A stretch of DNA of 64,000 nucleotides from Ktedonobacteria bacterium (lineage in GTDB: Bacteria; Chloroflexota; Ktedonobacteria; Ktedonobacterales; JACDGC01), in the NCBI GenBank assembly GCA_027459525.1, contig DAIDIC010000210.1, forward strand, positions 12,326-76,325, read 5' to 3'. Each line of letters starts with the position of its first letter. Position 1 is the first letter of the stretch. The notes below the pieces were generated by a model. That model did not search any database. It saw only the letters and a program-made list of their open reading frames with translations, and was not told where the DNA came from. Shown here one piece after another: positions 9,520-60,633 of the stretch. The position numbers and the translations under genes are program-made.

Positions 9520-9657
9520 TAGGACTTTCGCTTGAAAGAGCAGCGCATGGTTTCTCGTATCTGCAACAAAAGGAAATCTGGGGCCACCCCAGAACCCCGT
9601 ACAAGGGGATCCGCCCCTTGTACATCCCCGATTTTCCATGCTGCAGCAAAAGTCCTG
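9520..9657 (+). mobile_element. MITE-like structured repeat, copy 2 (forward)
   Basis: Full-length copy close to the consensus. Flanks TTTTT / TTCTT (4 of 5 identical). Lies between livK and livH, antisense to the operon. Confidence 0.85.
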
Positions 9658-12766: not shown

Positions 12767-13225
12767 ATGAAAGTAATTCTCCTAGAAGAAGTTCCCGGTC
12801 TTGGAAAAGCCGGTGAAGTTAAAAATGTCGCAGACGGTTACGCCCGCAATTATCTGTTACCCCGCAATATGGTTACTGCTGCAACCTCAAACGCTCTTTC
12901 CAATCTGCAGGATCGTGTAGCTCTTGAAAATCGCCGCAGAGAAAAATTATTGGCAGATCTTCAAAGCCTTACCGATCGACTAAACAGCGTTTCTTTAAAA
13001 TTTGCCGTTCGTGTTGGGAAAGATAACCAACTGTACGGTTCAGTTACCAATCAAGATATTGCCGACGCGCTCCGCGAACAAGAAAAAATTATTGTGGATC
13101 GCCGCTCCATTACGTTGCGCGAATCCATCCGCAGATTAGGTGAATATAAGGTTCCTGTGCGGTTGGGCAATACTTTTGAACCACAATTAACAGTGGTTAT
13201 TGTTCAAGAGGCCACAACAAAGTAA
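12767..13225 (+). CDS. rplI: 50S ribosomal protein L9
   Basis: MKVILLEEVPGLGKAGEVKNVADGYARNYLLPR is the canonical L9 N-terminus. Confidence 0.95.
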   Translation: MKVILLEEVPGLGKAGEVKNVADGYARNYLLPRNMVTAATSNALSNLQDRVALENRRREKLLADLQSLTDRLNSVSLKFAVRVGKDNQLYGSVTNQDIADALREQEKIIVDRRSITLRESIRRLGEYKVPVRLGNTFEPQLTVVIVQEATTK

Positions 13226-15651: not shown

Positions 15652-15788
15652 CAGGACTTTCGCTGCAGCATGGAACATCGGGGATGTACAAGGGGCGCCG
15701 CCTCTTGTACGGGGTTCTGGGGTGTCCCCAGACCTTCCTTTGCTGCAGATGCAAGAACCATGCGCTGCTCTTTCAAGCGAATGTCCTA
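15652..15788 (-). mobile_element. MITE-like structured repeat, copy 3 (reverse)
   Basis: Reverse complement of the consensus. Perfect 5-bp direct repeat ATTTT (15647-15651 / 15789-15793). Lies between flp and cpaB. Confidence 0.9.
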
Positions 15789-16671: not shown

Positions 16672-17823
16672 ATGTCTGGATTTTTCAAAAATGACCCTAA
16701 AATACGTGTGGTAATTGCCCATTCATCGCAAAATTCTGCGCTATATTTGCGCAAAATTGTAGAATCTAAACCGCAGTTGCGCGTTATTGCGGTTACCGTA
16801 TCAGCAGATGAATTAGTCGAAATTTGCAGAGACGGCAATCCGCAATTGGTAATAATGAATCAGCGGCTGGCAGATTGCAATAATGTTTTAGATACATCAT
16901 TGATTATGGATTTAGCGGTTCCTGTAATCCTTTTCACAGGGCATAGCTATGATGAGCTTTGGAAAGAAGCAATGCAACGCGGCGCACGTTATGTGCTGTT
17001 AGAGCCGATTAATTCTAAAGAATTGCACGCCAATATCACCCAGATTATTAACTCCACTGCCGCTGTGACATTACCTGCCCCCGAGCCGCAAAAAACTGAC
17101 GGCGCGCTGATTGCCGTGTGCGGCGCAAAAGGTGGCAGTGGATGCAGCGTTACTGCGGTAAATTTAGCGATTGCCCTGCAAGCTGATCATAAAAAAACTG
17201 CGTTGATCGATCTGGCGTTTGACACCGGCGACGATCACATTTTATTGAATTTAATGCCGCAGCAAACCATCGTTTCTTTATGCAATGAACCCGAGCTTGA
17301 CCAAGAAACAATTATCTACAACTCTGCAGAACATTCTTCGGGAATGCGCTTCTTCCGTGCGCCAGATTATATAGGAGAGGCGATGCAAATTCACGCTGAA
17401 GATTTACGCAGAATTCTTGTAGAAATGAGTGAGCATTTTGATTATATTATCGCCGATATCGGTTACCCAAACAACAGTTTAGCCTTAACCGCGCTGGAAC
17501 GAGCAGACGCCGTTTTGCTGCTGATGTCGCTCAACATAACATCAATCGGCCGAGCTACTAAAATGTTGCGATTCTTCAATGAAAACCAAATTCCTCAAGA
17601 AAAAATTTTTATTGTCAATACCGAGTTTAACAACAATAAACAGTTTAAACCGCGTCATCTGGAAAATTATACCGGAAAACAGATTTTTGCCGCGATTCCG
17701 GCAAATGAATCAGTCGTTGAAGAATCAATCATTAACGGTATGCCTTTTATTCTCAATAAAAAGCGAGAATCTGTCAGCAAAGCAATTTTTGATATTGCCC
17801 ATAAACTGGCTGCACGCCGTTGA
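16672..17823 (+). CDS. cpaE: TadZ/CpaE-like ParA/MinD-type ATPase with an atypical receiver domain
   Basis: Deviant Walker A CGAKGGSGCS. The N-terminal REC-like domain lacks acidic pocket residues (VVIAHSS, VIMNQ). Confidence 0.8.
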   Translation: MSGFFKNDPKIRVVIAHSSQNSALYLRKIVESKPQLRVIAVTVSADELVEICRDGNPQLVIMNQRLADCNNVLDTSLIMDLAVPVILFTGHSYDELWKEAMQRGARYVLLEPINSKELHANITQIINSTAAVTLPAPEPQKTDGALIAVCGAKGGSGCSVTAVNLAIALQADHKKTALIDLAFDTGDDHILLNLMPQQTIVSLCNEPELDQETIIYNSAEHSSGMRFFRAPDYIGEAMQIHAEDLRRILVEMSEHFDYIIADIGYPNNSLALTALERADAVLLLMSLNITSIGRATKMLRFFNENQIPQEKIFIVNTEFNNNKQFKPRHLENYTGKQIFAAIPANESVVEESIINGMPFILNKKRESVSKAIFDIAHKLAARR

Positions 17824-25038: not shown

Positions 25039-25057
25039 CTATATATATATATCTGAT

Positions 25058-25194
25058 CATGACTTTCGCTGCAGCATGGAACATCGGGGATGTACAAGAG
25101 GCGGCGCCCCTTGTACGGAGTTCTGGGGTGTCCCCGGACCTCCCTTTGTTGCAGATACGAAAACCATACGCTTCTCTTTCAAGCGAAAGTCTTA
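25058..25194 (-). mobile_element. MITE-like structured repeat, copy 4 (reverse)
   Basis: Perfect 5-bp direct repeat CTGAT (25053-25057 / 25195-25199). The termini carry substitutions (ATGAC.../...GTCTT). Confidence 0.9.
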
Positions 25195-25242
25195 CTGATA
25201 TTGAAAGAATCACCGCTTTTCGGTTACAGCGGCAACAAGCCG

Positions 25243-28066: not shown

Positions 28067-28204
28067 TGGGATTTTCGCTGGAAAGAGAAGCGCATGGTTC
28101 TCGTATCTACAACAAAGGGAGGTGTGGGGGGCATCCCAGAACCCCATACAAGGGGCGGAGACCATTGTACATCCCCGATGTTCCATGCTGCAGCGAAAGT
28201 CCTG
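28067..28204 (+). mobile_element. MITE-like structured repeat, copy 5 (forward)
   Basis: Full length but diverged at the 5' end (GGGATTTTCGCTGG). No recognisable target duplication (TTTTA / TTATT). Confidence 0.8.
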
Positions 28205-28453: not shown

Positions 28454-29953
28454 TTGTATCAATGGCAATCTTCTTCGGAATTTGATCACAGCCTGCGCGC
28501 ATTAGGCGATGTATACCGATTAAATATCTTACGACTGCTTGCTTCGCAAGGAGATATGACGGTATCAGAAATTACTCAGACACTTGGAAAGAGTCAGCCG
28601 CTTATCTCATTTCACTTGCGCATCCTGCGTGAGGCAGAAATTGTGCAAAAAATACAGCGCGGACGACAAGCCTATTATTCCGTAAACGATCGGGCGCTTT
28701 CGCGCATATATTCCGCAATAAACCGCTTTATTTTTGCCGCGACACCGCATGGCAATGCGCCAAACGGCCGGCAAACACCTGCAAAGGCGCCACATATACA
28801 GGCGCAAGAATCTACAAGGGAGAAATTTTCAATGGGCAAAAAAGTTCGGGTTGCAGTTATCGGCGCCGGTAACTGCGCATCCTCATTTGTTCAAGGTGTG
28901 CAATACTACCAAAACGCCAGCGAACAAGATTTTATTCCAGGCCTTATGCATGTCAACTTAGGCGGATATCATATTCATGATATCGAATTCAGCGCCGCGT
29001 TTGATATTGATTCCACCAAGGTTGGCAAAGACCTGAGTGAAGCAATTTTCTCGGGACCTAACAATACCTATAAGTTTTCCGACGTTCCCAACTTGGGCGT
29101 TACCGTAAATCGCGGCATGACACACGACGGCTTAGGCAAATATCTGTCGCAAGTGATAACTAAAGCGCCGGGATCAACCAGCGATATTGTAAAAATTCTG
29201 CGCGACACCGGCACCGATGTTGTAGTTAATTATCTTCCGGTAGGCAGCGAAACCGCTACCAAATGGTATGTTGAACAAGTGCTGCGCGCCGGCTGCGGCT
29301 TTGTTAACTGCATTCCTGTTTTTATTGGACGTGAGCAATATTGGCGCGAACGCTTTGAAGCAGAACATTTGCCGATTGTTGGCGATGATATTAAAAGTCA
29401 GGTCGGCGCCACCATTGTGCACCGTACACTTACCAGACTGTTCCGCGAGCGCGGTGTTCGCTTAGAGCGCACCATGCAGCTAAACGTCGGCGGCAACACC
29501 GATTTCTTAAACATGCTTGAGCGCGAACGATTGGAATCGAAGAAAATCTCGAAAACTAATTCGGTAACCAGCCAGTTAGATTATAATATTGGCGCCGAAA
29601 ACGTGCATATCGGCCCCAGTGACTATGTTGCATGGCTTACAGACCGCAAATGGGCCTACATTCGCATGGAAGGCCGCACATTCGGCGATGTTCCCTTAAA
29701 TATGGAACTGAAATTAGAGGTATGGGATTCACCCAATTCCGCAGGGGTGGTTATAGACGCCGTCCGTTGCGCAAAATTAGCAAAAGATAATGATGTCAGC
29801 GGCGCGCTGCTTGGTCCTTCCGCCTACTTTATGAAATCGCCGCCAGTGCAATATACCGATCCGCAGGCGCGGATTATGGTAGAGCAATTTATCAGTGAAT
29901 ACGGCGCAGGAGCCGCCGCCGCTCAGCCTTTCACTGAAACACCGGCTGAATAA
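28454..29953 (+). CDS. ino1: ArsR-type winged-HTH domain fused in frame to myo-inositol-1-phosphate synthase
   Basis: Residues about 14-80, [63 protein letters not shown], match ArsR/SmtB. From [26 protein letters not shown] the sequence is a bacterial/archaeal-type MIPS. No stop between the two parts. Internal ATG 28832 has its own GGGAG RBS. The outer start is TTG. Confidence 0.75.
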
Positions 29954-29974
29954 ACCGCACTACACGCCAAAGAT

Positions 29975-30010
29975 TTGCAAGGGGATCAGCCGCCCCTTGC
30001 AAAGGGCGGC
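29975..30010. terminator. Convergent-gene hairpin (two alternative stems), likely bidirectional terminator; related to the MITE apical hairpin
   Basis: TTGCAAGGGG (29975-29984) pairs with CCCCTTGCAA (29993-30002). Overlapping alternative: GCCGCCC (29989-29995) with GGGCGGC (30004-30010). Lies between the ino1 and PNP stops. Confidence 0.5.
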
Positions 30011-30056
30011 GTGGATATTCCCAAAAATCATTTTTCCTCTTATAAAACCTCTAGAC

Positions 30057-32382: not shown

Positions 32383-34731
32383 TTACATCGGAAATAATAC
32401 TGCTTGTTCCGGGGGAGAAAAAAATTCGGCAAAAACGGCGCGGCTCAGCCCATTTTCTAATTTTGCGGCGTATTGATTGCGCAAAATTTTTTTATAATAT
32501 GCAACATCATAGTTGCGGGTATCTGCTCCGGTATATAAAGTAACTTGGCGCTGTCCGGCGTAATAAAACCGTATGCGTTCGCCTTTTGCCCATACCGTTT
32601 TGCCTGCCGCAAGCATCGCTTCATAGGGCGCTTCGCGGCGTGTTTGGCGGGTGTTTAGATATTCTTTGCTGCTTTTTGTCAGCCGCGCAGGTATCAGCAT
32701 ATCTTCTAACGGCAGCGCTTTTTCGGCAAGAAGCGTAAGATAGCGTTGAAATATTTGCGGGATAAGCGCGCTATTATCGCGCAGCAACGCCGAAACGATT
32801 TCCGTAAGAAAATCGGCGCCAAACTTCTCAAATTTGCTGGAGCGAAACGCCACACCTTTTAAGATGATGATATCGTCATAGGTAAGCAGCGCATAGTTTT
32901 TCACCTCATGCGAAAGCATGGCCGCATATCGGCCCTCATATTCCAAATGTATCAACGGGGGCAGCAAAGTGTCTACTTCTTGAACGATGGCGCGTTCCTC
33001 AGTTTCACTCCAAGATTCCGGAACACTAAAGTATACACCATCGGTATCAGCTTCAATTAATTCTGCGCCGCGCGCCTTAAGTTGTTCGCAAATAACATTC
33101 AAGGTATCACGGCCGCGCTTAGTAATTTCATTTGCAGCGTTCATATCGGCAAAGCGCGCTAAACGCACGGAGCCTAAATAGCCATAGGCCGAATTAATAA
33201 TAATCTTCATTGCTGCAGAAAGGCTGTTATAACCGGCGCGCGCATTTTCCGGCAAAGAAGTATCTTTAGATAATTTTTTTGCTTGCAGGCGCTGCTCAAC
33301 CAACCGATCGACAATTCCCAGCAAAGCGCCTAAGCTATCTTGCTGAGATCCAATATGAAATTGTCGCATTAAGGATGGATATAAACTTGCCACATCGGCT
33401 TTTACCACATGTTTTTTAACGCCGGCGGCAAATAAAATAGTTGCCGCGCCGGAATGCGTTGCGCCATTGGGCTGAGTATACGCGGGAATAGCAGTTTGCG
33501 CGCGCAGATATGCGCGAAGCAGCATCGGCTCCAAAATTCCTGTTGCGGGTCCGGCGTCTGCAGCTCGTTCTCCGCGCCGCGGCGCCATTTTAGCCAAAGC
33601 AAAGGCCGCGCCGCCTAAAATTTCAGCAATGGAACCGGCCTCTATCACATCATCCATCGCATAGGCGCGCACTGCGTCTGGCTGTGTTTTCCATGTGTCA
33701 TACACCGCGCCGCCGCTAAGATAAACACGGTTTGGCGCGGCAACTCCAAAATATTTCGCCGTATCTTTCAAACCATGGTTTGGCAAAGCGCGCGCGGCAA
33801 AATCAAAACGCCGCACTGCGTCCAGCGTATCTATGATTTCTCTGCCTTGAATGCTGTAGCGCTGCCGGCCCAAATTAGCAAGCGGAATGGCGTATGTATC
33901 AGAATCTTCGGTAAATGCGCGTACTGCGCCATACCCGCGGGCAGAGCCGCGCGCAGTTCCCAGCACAGATGGCGCGCCCTTTCGGCCCAGCGCCATAGCT
34001 ACGCCAAGCTGTTGCGCGCGATAGAATAAAAACGGCAAATCAAACCCATGGATATTATGGTTTTCCAAAATATCGGGATCGGTTTCCTGAACAACTCGAC
34101 AAAACGCTGCCAATAACTCTTTCTCTGCGGCGGCGTCATCGGCAGATTTTGCGCCAATATCCAAAATACCCTGAAAGCCAAAATTAGAATGAATGGCTAT
34201 AAGAAACACGTGACTATCAGACGGATTCAGACCAGTGGTTTCAATATCAAAGCGCAAACGCCGTATATCGTTAAAATCCAGCCCTTTATAATACGTTCGG
34301 CCACTGGCAATAAGATATTGTTCTTCAGGGGGCAGCCGCAAAACAATATCTTTGCTTAGTTCACCTATATGGCTGGCTTTTGGGTATCCGCGCTGTGCAG
34401 CGCCTGCTAAAATATTTCTTTCAAGCAAACTATTATTTGCGCAGGAAAGTTTCCACTGCAGCGCGCCGGTTCCTTGCAATTTTTGCGCATAGATAACGGT
34501 GGGGTCTGCCTTTTCGGGAAATTCATATTGTATTTTTGGATACGTTAGCATAGCCAGATCAGAAATAAGCGCCCATGGGAGAAAATAATCGCGCTCTAAA
34601 ACCACAGGCTCACGCAGCGATGTGCGCCGCCATACCATAACCGAACCATTGTGCTGCGCCAATATCGATACAATACCGGGAGTAGTATCCCATCCCCAAA
34701 GCCAATCTTCCGGTGAAGCAATACTCATCAT
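32383..34731 (-). CDS. polB: Family B DNA polymerase (Pol II-like) with intact 3'-5' exonuclease motifs
   Basis: Exo I FDIETTG, Exo II NHNIHGFDLPFL, Exo III YAMDDV. Pol A DVASLYPSLM, Pol B KIIINSAYGYLG, Pol C EADTDGVYF. Start set to ATG 34731 (AAGG 5 nt upstream). Confidence 0.9.
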   Translation of the reverse strand: MMSIASPEDWLWGWDTTPGIVSILAQHNGSVMVWRRTSLREPVVLERDYFLPWALISDLAMLTYPKIQYEFPEKADPTVIYAQKLQGTGALQWKLSCANNSLLERNILAGAAQRGYPKASHIGELSKDIVLRLPPEEQYLIASGRTYYKGLDFNDIRRLRFDIETTGLNPSDSHVFLIAIHSNFGFQGILDIGAKSADDAAAEKELLAAFCRVVQETDPDILENHNIHGFDLPFLFYRAQQLGVAMALGRKGAPSVLGTARGSARGYGAVRAFTEDSDTYAIPLANLGRQRYSIQGREIIDTLDAVRRFDFAARALPNHGLKDTAKYFGVAAPNRVYLSGGAVYDTWKTQPDAVRAYAMDDVIEAGSIAEILGGAAFALAKMAPRRGERAADAGPATGILEPMLLRAYLRAQTAIPAYTQPNGATHSGAATILFAAGVKKHVVKADVASLYPSLMRQFHIGSQQDSLGALLGIVDRLVEQRLQAKKLSKDTSLPENARAGYNSLSAAMKIIINSAYGYLGSVRLARFADMNAANEITKRGRDTLNVICEQLKARGAELIEADTDGVYFSVPESWSETEERAIVQEVDTLLPPLIHLEYEGRYAAMLSHEVKNYALLTYDDIIILKGVAFRSSKFEKFGADFLTEIVSALLRDNSALIPQIFQRYLTLLAEKALPLEDMLIPARLTKSSKEYLNTRQTRREAPYEAMLAAGKTVWAKGERIRFYYAGQRQVTLYTGADTRNYDVAYYKKILRNQYAAKLENGLSRAVFAEFFSPPEQAVLFPM

Positions 34732-34797
34732 GAAAACCTTTGCGAGATATTTTGTTCTAAGTATATCATAGCGCAAAAACCGCAGGAAAGTCTGCAG

Positions 34798-42225: not shown

Positions 42226-42300
42226 AGGACTTTCGCTTGTTACCTTATTTGGAAATTTGCAAGGCTCTCCTTGCGCAGGATTTGGGGTATCCCTCCCAAA
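42226..42300 (+). repeat. Degenerate or rearranged relative of the MITE-like element
   Basis: Starts with an exact T-AGGACTTTCGCTTG terminus. Contains a GCAAGG-CTCT-CCTTGC hairpin and TTTGGG-GTATCCCT-CCCAAA. No matching right terminus was found. Confidence 0.35.
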
Positions 42301-42391
42301 TGCTCTCATCGGCGCAGTATGTAAGACAACCTTGAATGGTTCCGGCGGAAAACTAGCGTCAAAAAGATATTTCATACAATAAAGGGTCAAT

Positions 42392-46273: not shown

Positions 46274-48376
46274 ATGGCGACTCAAGCAGATAAATCATCC
46301 GCGGCGGCAAACGCTGCGCCGGCATTTGATCCGATTGACTGCTATAAGCAGATGATCATGGCTCGAACCATTAATGAGACATTAAAGGCTCGTAAAACAC
46401 AGGGTAAATTCCCCTTTTATATCGGCGCCGGCGGACATGAAGCTTTAGCCGGTGTGGTCGCCGCGCTGCGGCAAGATGACTGGCTGGCCCTTTACTATAG
46501 AGATCTTGCCGTATGGCTTCAACGCACCCGCGACGCATTCGCGCCAGTGCGCGCCGCGTATTCGCGTGTTACCGACCCTATGTCTGCCGGGCGGAATATG
46601 CCGGAACATTTTAGCAGCGCGGACTATCATATTCTGCCAACATCCAGCGAAGTTTCCAGCCTTGGACCATTTGCCGCCGGCGTGGCGTATGCCTTTAAGC
46701 GCGCAAAAACCGGCCAATTGGCAATGTTTTGCACCGGAGATGGCGGCGCGGCAACCAATGATTTTACGGCAATGTATCGCGCGGCAACCGTGCATAAACT
46801 GCCGCTGATTATGACTGTAGAAGATAACGGCTGGGCAATTACTACGCCAACAGACGGACACCAATGGGGCGGTAATTTGGCAGAATGGGCGCGCGGCGGT
46901 GGCGCATTTACGATTGAAGCAGACGGAACCAACGCTTTAGAGCTATATGAGGTTGGGTTGCAAGCCGCTGAAGTTGCCAGATCCGGAAACGGTCCGGTAT
47001 TTTTGCATTTAAAGATGGGCCTGCTCGATCCGCATTCCAGCAGCACCGATATTTATGCGTACCGCCAACGCGACGAAGTTGCTAAAACAAAAGAAACCCG
47101 CGACCCCATCCGTAATACCGGCAAAGCGTTGATAGAACGCGGCCTGCTGACACAGGAACAGATCGACCGGATGATGGAACAAGCAAAAGATGAGTTGGAC
47201 GCTATTGAAGATCAGGTTTTGGCAGAGCCGGTTGCCACCGGAGATCGCGTGCAGGAACGGCTGTATTATTGGCCGACGGAGCCGCAGGTAGAACCGGGAT
47301 CGAATCGGTCGAGTAAACATATGCTGCAGGCCATCAACGAGGCGCTGGTAGAAATTACGCGCCGAGATTCCGGCTTTTTTGTGTACGGCCAAGATGTTGG
47401 CAGCCCGCGCGGCGGTGTTTTTGGCGCAACGCAAATGCTGGTAAATGAATTTCCGCAATCGGCAATCAGCAGCCCCCTGAATGAGCAAATTATTTTCGGC
47501 ATAGCCGCTGGCGCCTCTATGGCAGATAACAAAGCGCGATTTGGCGAAATTCAATTTGTGGATTACCATCAATCTATGTCGCAAAGCATACGCATAGCAG
47601 GGCGCATATCGTACCAAACGTTTGGTGACTGGAAATGTCCTGTGGTTATTCGCACAAAAGCCGGCAGCGGCGGCGGCGGCCCAATTTCTGATTCTGGCAC
47701 AGGCGGCGGCGCATTCGGGCATTCACATTCCGGAGAATATTGGTTTACCTCCATTCCCGGATTGATTACTGTTTGCCCCAGCAACCCATTTGACGCTAAA
47801 GGTTTGATGATCGAATCTTCACGCACACAATCACCGCTCGTATTTTTGGAACGCGGCAGACTCTTCCGATCAGATCCGCCAAAAGACGCCAACGGCAATG
47901 TGATAGCAGAACTGGCAGATTTATGGCTGACCCCCGATGGATATTATACTGTGCCGCTGCGTTCGGCGCGAACCATTCATATTGGGCAGGGCAGTACCGC
48001 CGGCGCAATTATAACATGGGGCACTATGGTTTTAGAGTCTGCCATTGCCGCGGCAAATGCGTCACAGCAATATAACTGCGCATTTGATATTATTGATTTG
48101 CGCACGCTGTACCCATTTGATGAAGCGACTGTTTCTCAGGCTATTGCGGCAACAAACCGTGTTGTGGTAGTAACTGAAGAAGGTGACCATACCAGTTTTG
48201 GCCGGCACCTGCATTCGTGGATTGTAGAACGGCATTTTAATGACCTTGATATGCCGGCAGAACTCATCCATGCGCTCGCATTCCCGGCCGTTTCATACAG
48301 CGCCGCCGAAGAAGCAGTGTTTTATCCGACTTCTAAGGATATTGAGCAGATCTTGGTCCGCTTTGCTTCAGCGTAA
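46274..48376 (+). CDS. Fused E1 alpha-beta TPP-dependent 2-oxoacid (branched-chain/acetoin-type) dehydrogenase component
   Basis: The N-terminal half has the E1-alpha TPP motif (CTGDGGAATNDF...EDNGWAI). The C-terminal half is E1-beta (YGQDVGSPRGGVFGAT...SSPLNEQIIFGIAAGA). Confidence 0.85.
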   Translation: MATQADKSSAAANAAPAFDPIDCYKQMIMARTINETLKARKTQGKFPFYIGAGGHEALAGVVAALRQDDWLALYYRDLAVWLQRTRDAFAPVRAAYSRVTDPMSAGRNMPEHFSSADYHILPTSSEVSSLGPFAAGVAYAFKRAKTGQLAMFCTGDGGAATNDFTAMYRAATVHKLPLIMTVEDNGWAITTPTDGHQWGGNLAEWARGGGAFTIEADGTNALELYEVGLQAAEVARSGNGPVFLHLKMGLLDPHSSSTDIYAYRQRDEVAKTKETRDPIRNTGKALIERGLLTQEQIDRMMEQAKDELDAIEDQVLAEPVATGDRVQERLYYWPTEPQVEPGSNRSSKHMLQAINEALVEITRRDSGFFVYGQDVGSPRGGVFGATQMLVNEFPQSAISSPLNEQIIFGIAAGASMADNKARFGEIQFVDYHQSMSQSIRIAGRISYQTFGDWKCPVVIRTKAGSGGGGPISDSGTGGGAFGHSHSGEYWFTSIPGLITVCPSNPFDAKGLMIESSRTQSPLVFLERGRLFRSDPPKDANGNVIAELADLWLTPDGYYTVPLRSARTIHIGQGSTAGAIITWGTMVLESAIAAANASQQYNCAFDIIDLRTLYPFDEATVSQAIAATNRVVVVTEEGDHTSFGRHLHSWIVERHFNDLDMPAELIHALAFPAVSYSAAEEAVFYPTSKDIEQILVRFASA

Positions 48377-55911: not shown

Positions 55912-56048
55912 TAGGACTTTTGCTTGAAAGAGCAGCGCATGGTTCTCGTATCTGCAACAAAGGGAGGTCTGGGGACACCCCAGAACCCCGTACAAGGGGC
56001 ATTGTCCCTTGTATATCCCCGATGTTCCATGCTGAAGCGAAAGTCCTG
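55912..56048 (+). mobile_element. MITE-like structured repeat, copy 6 (forward; closest to consensus)
   Basis: Full-length. Flanks ACCTG / ACATG (4 of 5 identical). Lies in the divergent region between the ADH and Pnkp-like genes. Confidence 0.9.
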
Positions 56049-60562: not shown

Positions 60563-60633
60563 CAGGACTTTCGTTTCAGTAGAAAATTTGGGGGTATACA
60601 AGGGCGCGGCGCCTCTTGCAAGCGAAAGTCCTA
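60563..60633 (-). mobile_element. MITE-like repeat, copy 7: internally deleted (about 69 nt core), reverse orientation
   Basis: Both termini (AGGACTTTCG... / ...AAGCGAAAGTCCT) and the apical hairpin are kept, and about 65 nt are missing. Flanks ATATT / ATATA (4 of 5 identical). Confidence 0.8.

Follow-up and report, generated by a model that had tools for sequence, protein, structure and literature searches.

The window, by which we mean the whole 64-kb stretch of DNA that was analyzed, has the gene content of ordinary chromosome, with genes for EF-G, DnaG, a sigma-70 factor, RuvC, L9, a tad pilus cluster and an ABC transporter. The named homologs of a neighboring protein come solely from Ktedonobacterales, and the host is therefore probably a member of the Chloroflexota. 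The only match to an Rfam covariance model across the whole window was a tRNA-Val. A 797-residue ORF on the minus strand (32383-34776) resembles family B DNA polymerases only weakly, its best match (E = 3e-25) falling well short of all curated cut-offs. Such a divergent PolB-like gene is unusual in a bacterial chromosome; its neighbors in the cluster code for a sigma-70 factor, the DnaG primase and a YbaK-type editing domain. There are also two apparent gene fusions on the plus strand, one joining an ArsR/SmtB-type HTH domain to an inositol-3-phosphate synthase (28454-29953) and the other joining the alpha and beta subunits of pyruvate dehydrogenase E1 in a single 700-residue ORF (46274-48376).

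The window contains seven intergenic copies (c1 to c7) of a repeat, 137-138 bp in length, which carries the hairpin at 25092-25116 that had been flagged in the initial annotation. All seven copies have terminal inverted repeats of approximately 12 bp (CAGGACTTTCGC at the start and GCGAAAGTCCTA at the end) and a 5-bp target-site duplication, which is perfect in c1, c3, and c4, matches at four of five positions in c2, c6, and c7 and at three of five in c5. The predicted fold is an outer stem with two adjacent hairpins, HP1 (the flagged hairpin) and HP2 (TCTGGGG TGT CCCCAGA), with z-scores of -4 to -5 on either strand.

Four of the copies are on the minus strand. These are c1 (691-828, 138 bp, duplication CTATA), which is the most diverged copy and has HP1 at 768-793 (26 nt) and HP2 at 747-762; c2 (9520-9657, 138 bp, duplication AAGAA/AAAAA), with a perfect HP1 stem at 9599-9623; c5 (28067-28204, 138 bp), in which HP1 (28146-28170, center base C) is eroded by three G-to-T changes; and c6 (55912-56048, 137 bp), with HP1 at 55990-56014. 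On the plus strand, c3 (15652-15788, 137 bp, duplication ATTTT, HP2 at 15716-15732) ends 86 nt upstream of a CpaB-like gene, the first of the tad/Flp pilus cluster, and c4 (25058-25194, 137 bp, duplication CTGAT at 25053-25057 and 25195-25199, HP2 at 25122-25138) is neighbored by Ser/Thr kinase and glycosyltransferase genes, both on the minus strand. The last copy, c7 (60563-60633, plus strand), is an internally deleted derivative of 71 bp with an HP1 remnant at 60596-60621. At its junction the 3′ arm of HP1 is fused to the 3′ end of the element at CTCTTG, a sequence whose source may be either the HP1 3′ arm or CTCTTTCAAG near the element 3′ end, and which suggests that the internal deletion was microhomology-mediated. 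As a separate matter, copies c1 to c6 (e.g., 15652-15788) are nearly free of internal stop codons in all six frames, and c3, c4, and c6 share an ATG-started ORF (MEHRG..., 38-39 codons) whose end is only a few bases away from the element 3′ end. A coding function is unlikely, because the frame shifts between the 137-bp and 138-bp copies.

The repeat is a MITE-like non-autonomous element of an undescribed family, and the hallmarks of a MITE that can be tested are present in it. It resembles the Correia/NEMIS elements of Neisseria and the ERIC/IRU elements of enterobacteria (PMC3184786) in its size range (~100-200 bp), terminal inverted repeats and short target-site duplication, and also in that a transposase is lacking, intergenic copies are numerous, the transcript folds strongly and internally deleted variants occur. 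It differs from such bacterial MITEs in having no similarity to the repeats curated in Rfam and in that its core is common to differently built repeats of a sister species (see below). We rejected membership of a known RNA family, as there was no Rfam 15 match at gathering score and the best sub-threshold score for the element was 16.6 bits relative to a cut-off of 40. REP/REPIN sequences mobilized with RAYT transposases (PMC3337134) are likewise GC-rich extragenic palindromes that are often clustered or in tandem, but this class was rejected since the hairpin starts with GTAC rather than a 5′ GTAG, and inverted repeats and a target-site duplication are present. The 46 ORFs scanned in the window include no RAYT or Y1 transposase, nor any other transposase, recombinase or reverse transcriptase, and no autonomous insertion sequence with matching terminal inverted repeats was found within the window.

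Searches for the family beyond the window were negative. A scan of 185,579 representative genomes and of the JGI metagenomes for the family 20-mer CAGCATGGAAMATCGGGGAT gave chance matches in unrelated sequence only. Viral contigs scanned for HP2, in both its window form and its sister-species form, gave no match, and when the concatenated six-frame translation of all copies was compared with a set of 5.8 billion proteins, in search of spurious ORFs annotated over other copies, nothing scored.

A syntenic sister species (GCA_027350185.1 and related assemblies) encodes a neighboring protein that is 85% identical to that of the window. The MITE itself is absent from the sister-species loci examined; these have some 17 distinct copies of a module, 58 nt in length, that is homologous to the core of the MITE. 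The module consists, in order, of GGGAT, HP1 (CGTAAGGGGC, a 4-nt loop and GCCCCTTGCG), CGGGGTTT, HP2 (GGGGTGTCCCC) and an A/T-rich tail. Two outer pairs of the HP1 stem differ between the two species, each through a double change that keeps the pairing (C-G to U-A, and G-C to A-U). Modules were located in L007 (1605-1753, 3210-3267, and 15762-15819), L011 (42-291, 4630-4687, and 11789-12048), L018 (9828-10060 and 13071-13128) and L019 (10021-10078 and 10321-10378). They lie in differing scaffolds and are often in tandem with a period of 87-101 bp, and the arrays look REP/BIME-like. A covariance model of the module found no copy in the more distant relatives L020 and L022, whose TadG-like neighbor protein is 41-42% identical. 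The sister species also has a second conserved repeat, GTAGCCGGG...GGGCGACCGCAAGGGTCGCCCCTACCGGATTGCAT, which was not found in the window; it has a GC-rich hairpin with a GCAA loop in a GTAG...CTAC frame, looks REP-like, and occurs in L007 (1790-1840 and 15890-15940), L018 (10095-10140) and L019 (10120-10165 and 10410-10455).

The same covariance model gave weak matches (15-27 bits) to single-copy sites at 29969-30030 and 42251-42304 on the plus strand of the window and at 17760-17817 and 12812-12867 on the minus strand of L007. Both window sites and L007 17760-17817 are directly 3′ of genes and resemble native terminator-type double hairpins; L007 12812-12867 is at a greater distance downstream, within the ortholog of the intergenic region into which c4 is inserted. 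The mobile module may be derived from double hairpins such as these. The MITE itself has some likeness to intrinsic (Rho-independent) terminators, in that HP2 and its T-rich tail were called terminator-like by a consensus scan on the element strand of c2 and c3, and in the similar single-copy double hairpins 3′ of two genes. It differs from them in that the T-tract of the window element is weak and the copies occur in all orientations relative to genes, including in divergent promoter regions. A further, improbable reading is that the two-hairpin module, which is conserved between the species, has a function as an RNA or DNA signal, either terminator-like or for protein binding, and was captured by different mobile scaffolds.

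The feature that had drawn most attention was a mirror-image relation between the HP1 hairpins of c3 and c4. The initial annotation described the two as exact reverse complements that differ at three places, the center and one paired position, with a G-T wobble on opposite strands, and our analyses confirmed this description. By BLAST, the HP1 of c3 (15686-15710, plus strand, GTACAAGGGGCGCCGCCTCTTGTAC) and that of c4 (25092-25116, plus strand, GTACAAGAGGCGGCGCCCCTTGTAC) are identical at 25 of 25 positions as reverse complements, and the host copies align in the same orientation with 88% identity across ~150 bp. As the two copies are co-oriented, the mirror image is confined to the hairpin and is not a by-product of element orientation. 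Read directly, the hairpins differ at positions 8, 13 (the center) and 18, and there is no difference between them in the outer 7-bp arms GTACAAG/CTTGTAC. In c3 the pair 8-18 is a G.T wobble on the plus strand and the center base is C; in c4 the pair is an A.C mismatch on the element (plus) strand, which is G.T when read on the minus strand, and the center base is G. The hairpin motif has three exact matches in the window relative to none expected by chance. A hairpin of the c3/c4 type is a perfect odd-length palindrome but for one center base and the transition that each copy carries, and it differs from its own reverse complement at three positions only.

It is conceivable that the mirror image arose in assembly or sequencing, since the contig is probably metagenome-assembled and repeats and palindromes are known to give assemblers trouble. 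We consider this very unlikely and rejected it, because assembly k-mers are much longer than the stem arms (7-12 bp). The k-mers that link A8 to the unique left flank and T18 to the right flank could not have come from the other orientation, and both copies have unique flanks and intact target-site duplications.

The apex of HP1 had been described as the only strongly variable segment of the element, and it is indeed its most variable part, at approximately five times the level of the stems and flanks. In c1 to c6, 13 of the 48 cells in the central eight alignment columns are off consensus (27%), compared with 7 of 108 in the HP1 stems (6.5%) and 46 of 690 in the flanks (6.7%), and the comparison of the center with the rest (13/48 vs. 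53/798) gives an odds ratio of 5.2 (Fisher p = 3e-5). The apex is all G/C and a general GC-to-AT bias accounts for part of the excess; when G/C positions only are compared (28.6% in the apex vs. 8.3% elsewhere, p = 3e-4), an excess of ~3.4-fold is left. The clearest case is c6, which has two changes in 115 flank columns and five in the 25-nt hairpin. The sister species is alike, with its 4-nt HP1 loop being the most variable part of the module (23/64 vs. 75/768), whereas the HP2 loop, TGT, is conserved, unlike the HP1 apex. Since the stems and flanks decay equally and the outer stem of the element has uncompensated changes, a raised mutation rate at the apex is a better explanation of these figures than selection elsewhere in the element.

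The tip strings that had been quoted for the seven copies are correct as plus-strand reads; however, with four copies on the minus strand, tips have to be compared in element orientation, in which they read CGGAT in c2, ACAATG in c6, TGGTCTCCG in c5 and CAGTCGT in c1. The differences in length that these strings imply did not hold up. In a global alignment HP1 is 25 nt throughout, or 26 nt in c1 and c7, showing that the tips differ through substitution, and their apparent length mirrors only the extent to which stem pairing has eroded. The c2 tip, CGGAT, is also the commonest tip in the sister species and is probably ancestral. The CGGCG and CGCCG tips are set apart from it by an AT-to-CG change of two bases, which makes the palindrome perfect. 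The center base is dimorphic, being C in c3 and c5 and G in c1, c2, and c4, with c7 of the G type by inspection, and outside the apex G-to-C changes are seldom seen (2 of 50 recorded changes).

Variability concentrated at an apex in two species, together with one mirror-image pair, might be taken as the trace of programmed switching or diversification at the hairpin apex, for example by a site-specific invertase or by targeted hypermutation. There is nothing else in its favor, and we regard it as extremely unlikely. An invertase switch was rejected given that no recombinase (and likewise no reverse transcriptase or transposase) occurs among the ORFs scanned, and that the invertible segment would be ~11 nt between 7-bp arms, far below the size of known invertible switches. 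Orthologous copies are, moreover, unchanged across up to seven assemblies, and the changes at the apex are mostly GC-to-AT, like those in the rest of the element.

Our preferred reading, in which we have about even confidence, is that the c3/c4 mirror image came about through ordinary point mutation and not through a physical flip. As the hairpin is palindromic bar one center base, a mirror image needs only one transition per copy and a C/G difference at the center, and c3 and c4 are indeed each one transition away from the consensus stem. On this reading, copies would decay roughly neutrally once inserted, with stems and flanks changing at one rate, and the GC-only apex of the quasi-palindrome would be a local mutation hot spot, likely as a result of hairpin-associated replication errors and single-strand damage. 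A C-to-T transition in c3 and the mirrored G-to-A transition in c4 would have struck a single G:C pair of the G4/C4 tract, one on each strand, and the unpaired center base, which is C or G across the family, would complete the mirror image. That no inversion took place is a step that we infer. Consistent with point mutation, independent changes at the same G:C pair occur in a sister-species copy, r13 (AAGAGG...CCCC), and in L007, where they affect the orthologous single-copy hairpin 3′ of the inositol-phosphate synthase gene.

Several observations weigh against point mutation. In simulations of independent substitution, an exact non-trivial reverse-complement pair arose in 0.2-0.6% of cases for the three copies with GC tips and in 1-4% with all seven copies treated alike, in both cases before allowing for post-hoc selection and with the center base set at 50:50 C/G, a setting generous to independent mutation. 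The dimorphism of the center would require the G-to-C change that is rare outside the apex, and the AT-to-CG double change looks templated. This palindrome-perfecting change suggests to us that template switching does act on HP1.

The chief alternative is the hairpin or cruciform flip that the initial annotation had proposed. Here a single short template switch in replication, a cruciform or hairpin event, or a short conversion patch from an oppositely oriented copy would have inverted at least 11 nt between GTACAAG and CTTGTAC, so that a c3-type hairpin became one of the c4 type or vice versa, and the same process would also perfect the palindrome and create the C/G dimorphism of the center. 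We view this as a possible, if somewhat doubtful, account. The data are compatible with it, in that replacement by a reverse complement bounded by inverted repeats explains all three of the clustered c3/c4 differences by one event. It also draws on the low probability of such a pair under the null (0.2-4%), on the CGGAT to CGGCG double change, which perfects the palindrome as template switching predicts, and on the center dimorphism (c3 and c5 vs. c1, c2, and c4), which otherwise calls for a rare transversion. Inversion of a hairpin by template switching is a known mechanism, described in a general model (PMC5453318) and with loop inversions on record that include bacterial rRNA hairpins (PMC8794818), and it may have acted on c3/c4 as well. 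Those systems resemble the present case in having clustered differences that are explained by a reverse-complement segment between short inverted repeats, and also in the palindrome-perfecting double change and the mutation hot spot at the apex; the present case differs from them in that the c3/c4 segment departs from its own reverse complement at just three positions, making point mutation a serious competitor. Where a near-perfect palindrome leaves just three positions free to differ, finding a mirror-image pair is weak evidence of inversion. Further points of comparison are the quasi-palindrome model of Ripley, the quasi-palindrome hot spots of Escherichia coli and the minute hairpin inversions of chloroplast non-coding DNA.

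A larger alignment had been proposed as the test for an excess of reverse-complement pairs, and the result in the sister species went against a flip. The 14 sister-species hairpins compared all have clearly asymmetric loops, and not one of them is inverted; the direct orientation was the closer in 82 of 91 pairs and the minimum reverse-complement distance was 4, although the control hairpin is related yet distinct, has a 4-nt loop and may flip less readily, and the copies of the actual family that were examined number seven. The window family itself offers 11 comparable pairs only, too few to decide on such an excess. In one sister-species copy, r7, the mirrored state of the pair (C.A, not T.G) is seen to have been reached by substitution with the loop uninverted, and orthologous sister-species copies are identical across two to seven assemblies. 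Within the window, c5 has center C with a perfect pair 8-18, which breaks the linkage of stem and center expected from a flip, and c7 has a G-type center, possibly together with the T at the c3 position, a base that is ambiguous at the deletion junction. From these combinations, stem state and center base are not obviously linked. Copies c3 and c4 are also paralogous insertions that share no derived change outside the hairpin, with conflict among the eight informative flank sites, and complete loop inversions are described as very rare (PMC8794818). In a rough likelihood comparison, a flip was favored only if flips exceed ~3% per copy lifetime; the sister-species data permit a rate of up to ~17% and favor less.

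A different process, strand-specific and tied to local transcription instead of to element orientation, could produce the same pattern. This might be selection at the RNA level that tolerates only the transition that forms a wobble, or deamination of the exposed non-template strand at the same cytosine. Copy c3 is co-oriented with the downstream plus-strand tad operon and c4 lies between minus-strand genes, so that on the local coding strand the two hairpins are one sequence with a G.U wobble. By RNA folding the c3 hairpin (-15.7 kcal/mol) is more stable than that of c4 (-11.8 kcal/mol), i.e., the wobble form is favored over the A.C form by 3.9 kcal/mol. The terminator-like calls on the element strand of c2 and c3 and the module-like hairpins directly 3′ of genes at 29969-30030 and 42251-42304 also speak for this reading. 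Despite these points we consider a transcription-linked origin to be quite unlikely. A tally over the seven copies found five wobble-type and three A.C-type stem changes on the element strand, with no clear bias, and c7 is anti-oriented to its flanking genes and yet apparently has a wobble on the plus strand. The occurrence of elements in every orientation relative to genes, divergent promoter regions among them, is a further argument against it.

Whichever way the mirror image arose, what is reported here is an undescribed MITE family and a two-hairpin module that it has in common with repeats of a sister species. A broader proposal would be that the near-perfect MITE palindrome undergoes frequent template switching in situ, which perfects it, flips it and scrambles its apex; we think this improbable. 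If it did so, the several hundred copies per genome expected at the density of the window would amount to a multi-locus recorder of template switching in an uncultured bacterium. Were the flip real and recurrent, the family would be one of few natural readouts of short bacterial template-switch inversions, and would caution against counting clustered differences in repeat hairpins as independent substitutions. One further observation concerns the divergent intergenic region between the gene for a 168-residue protein and the ArsR-INO1 fusion gene, where a module-bearing repeat is found in both species (28067-28204 in the window and 15762-15819 in L007). The two repeats differ in type and are in opposite orientation, and are thus independent insertions into one permissive region.
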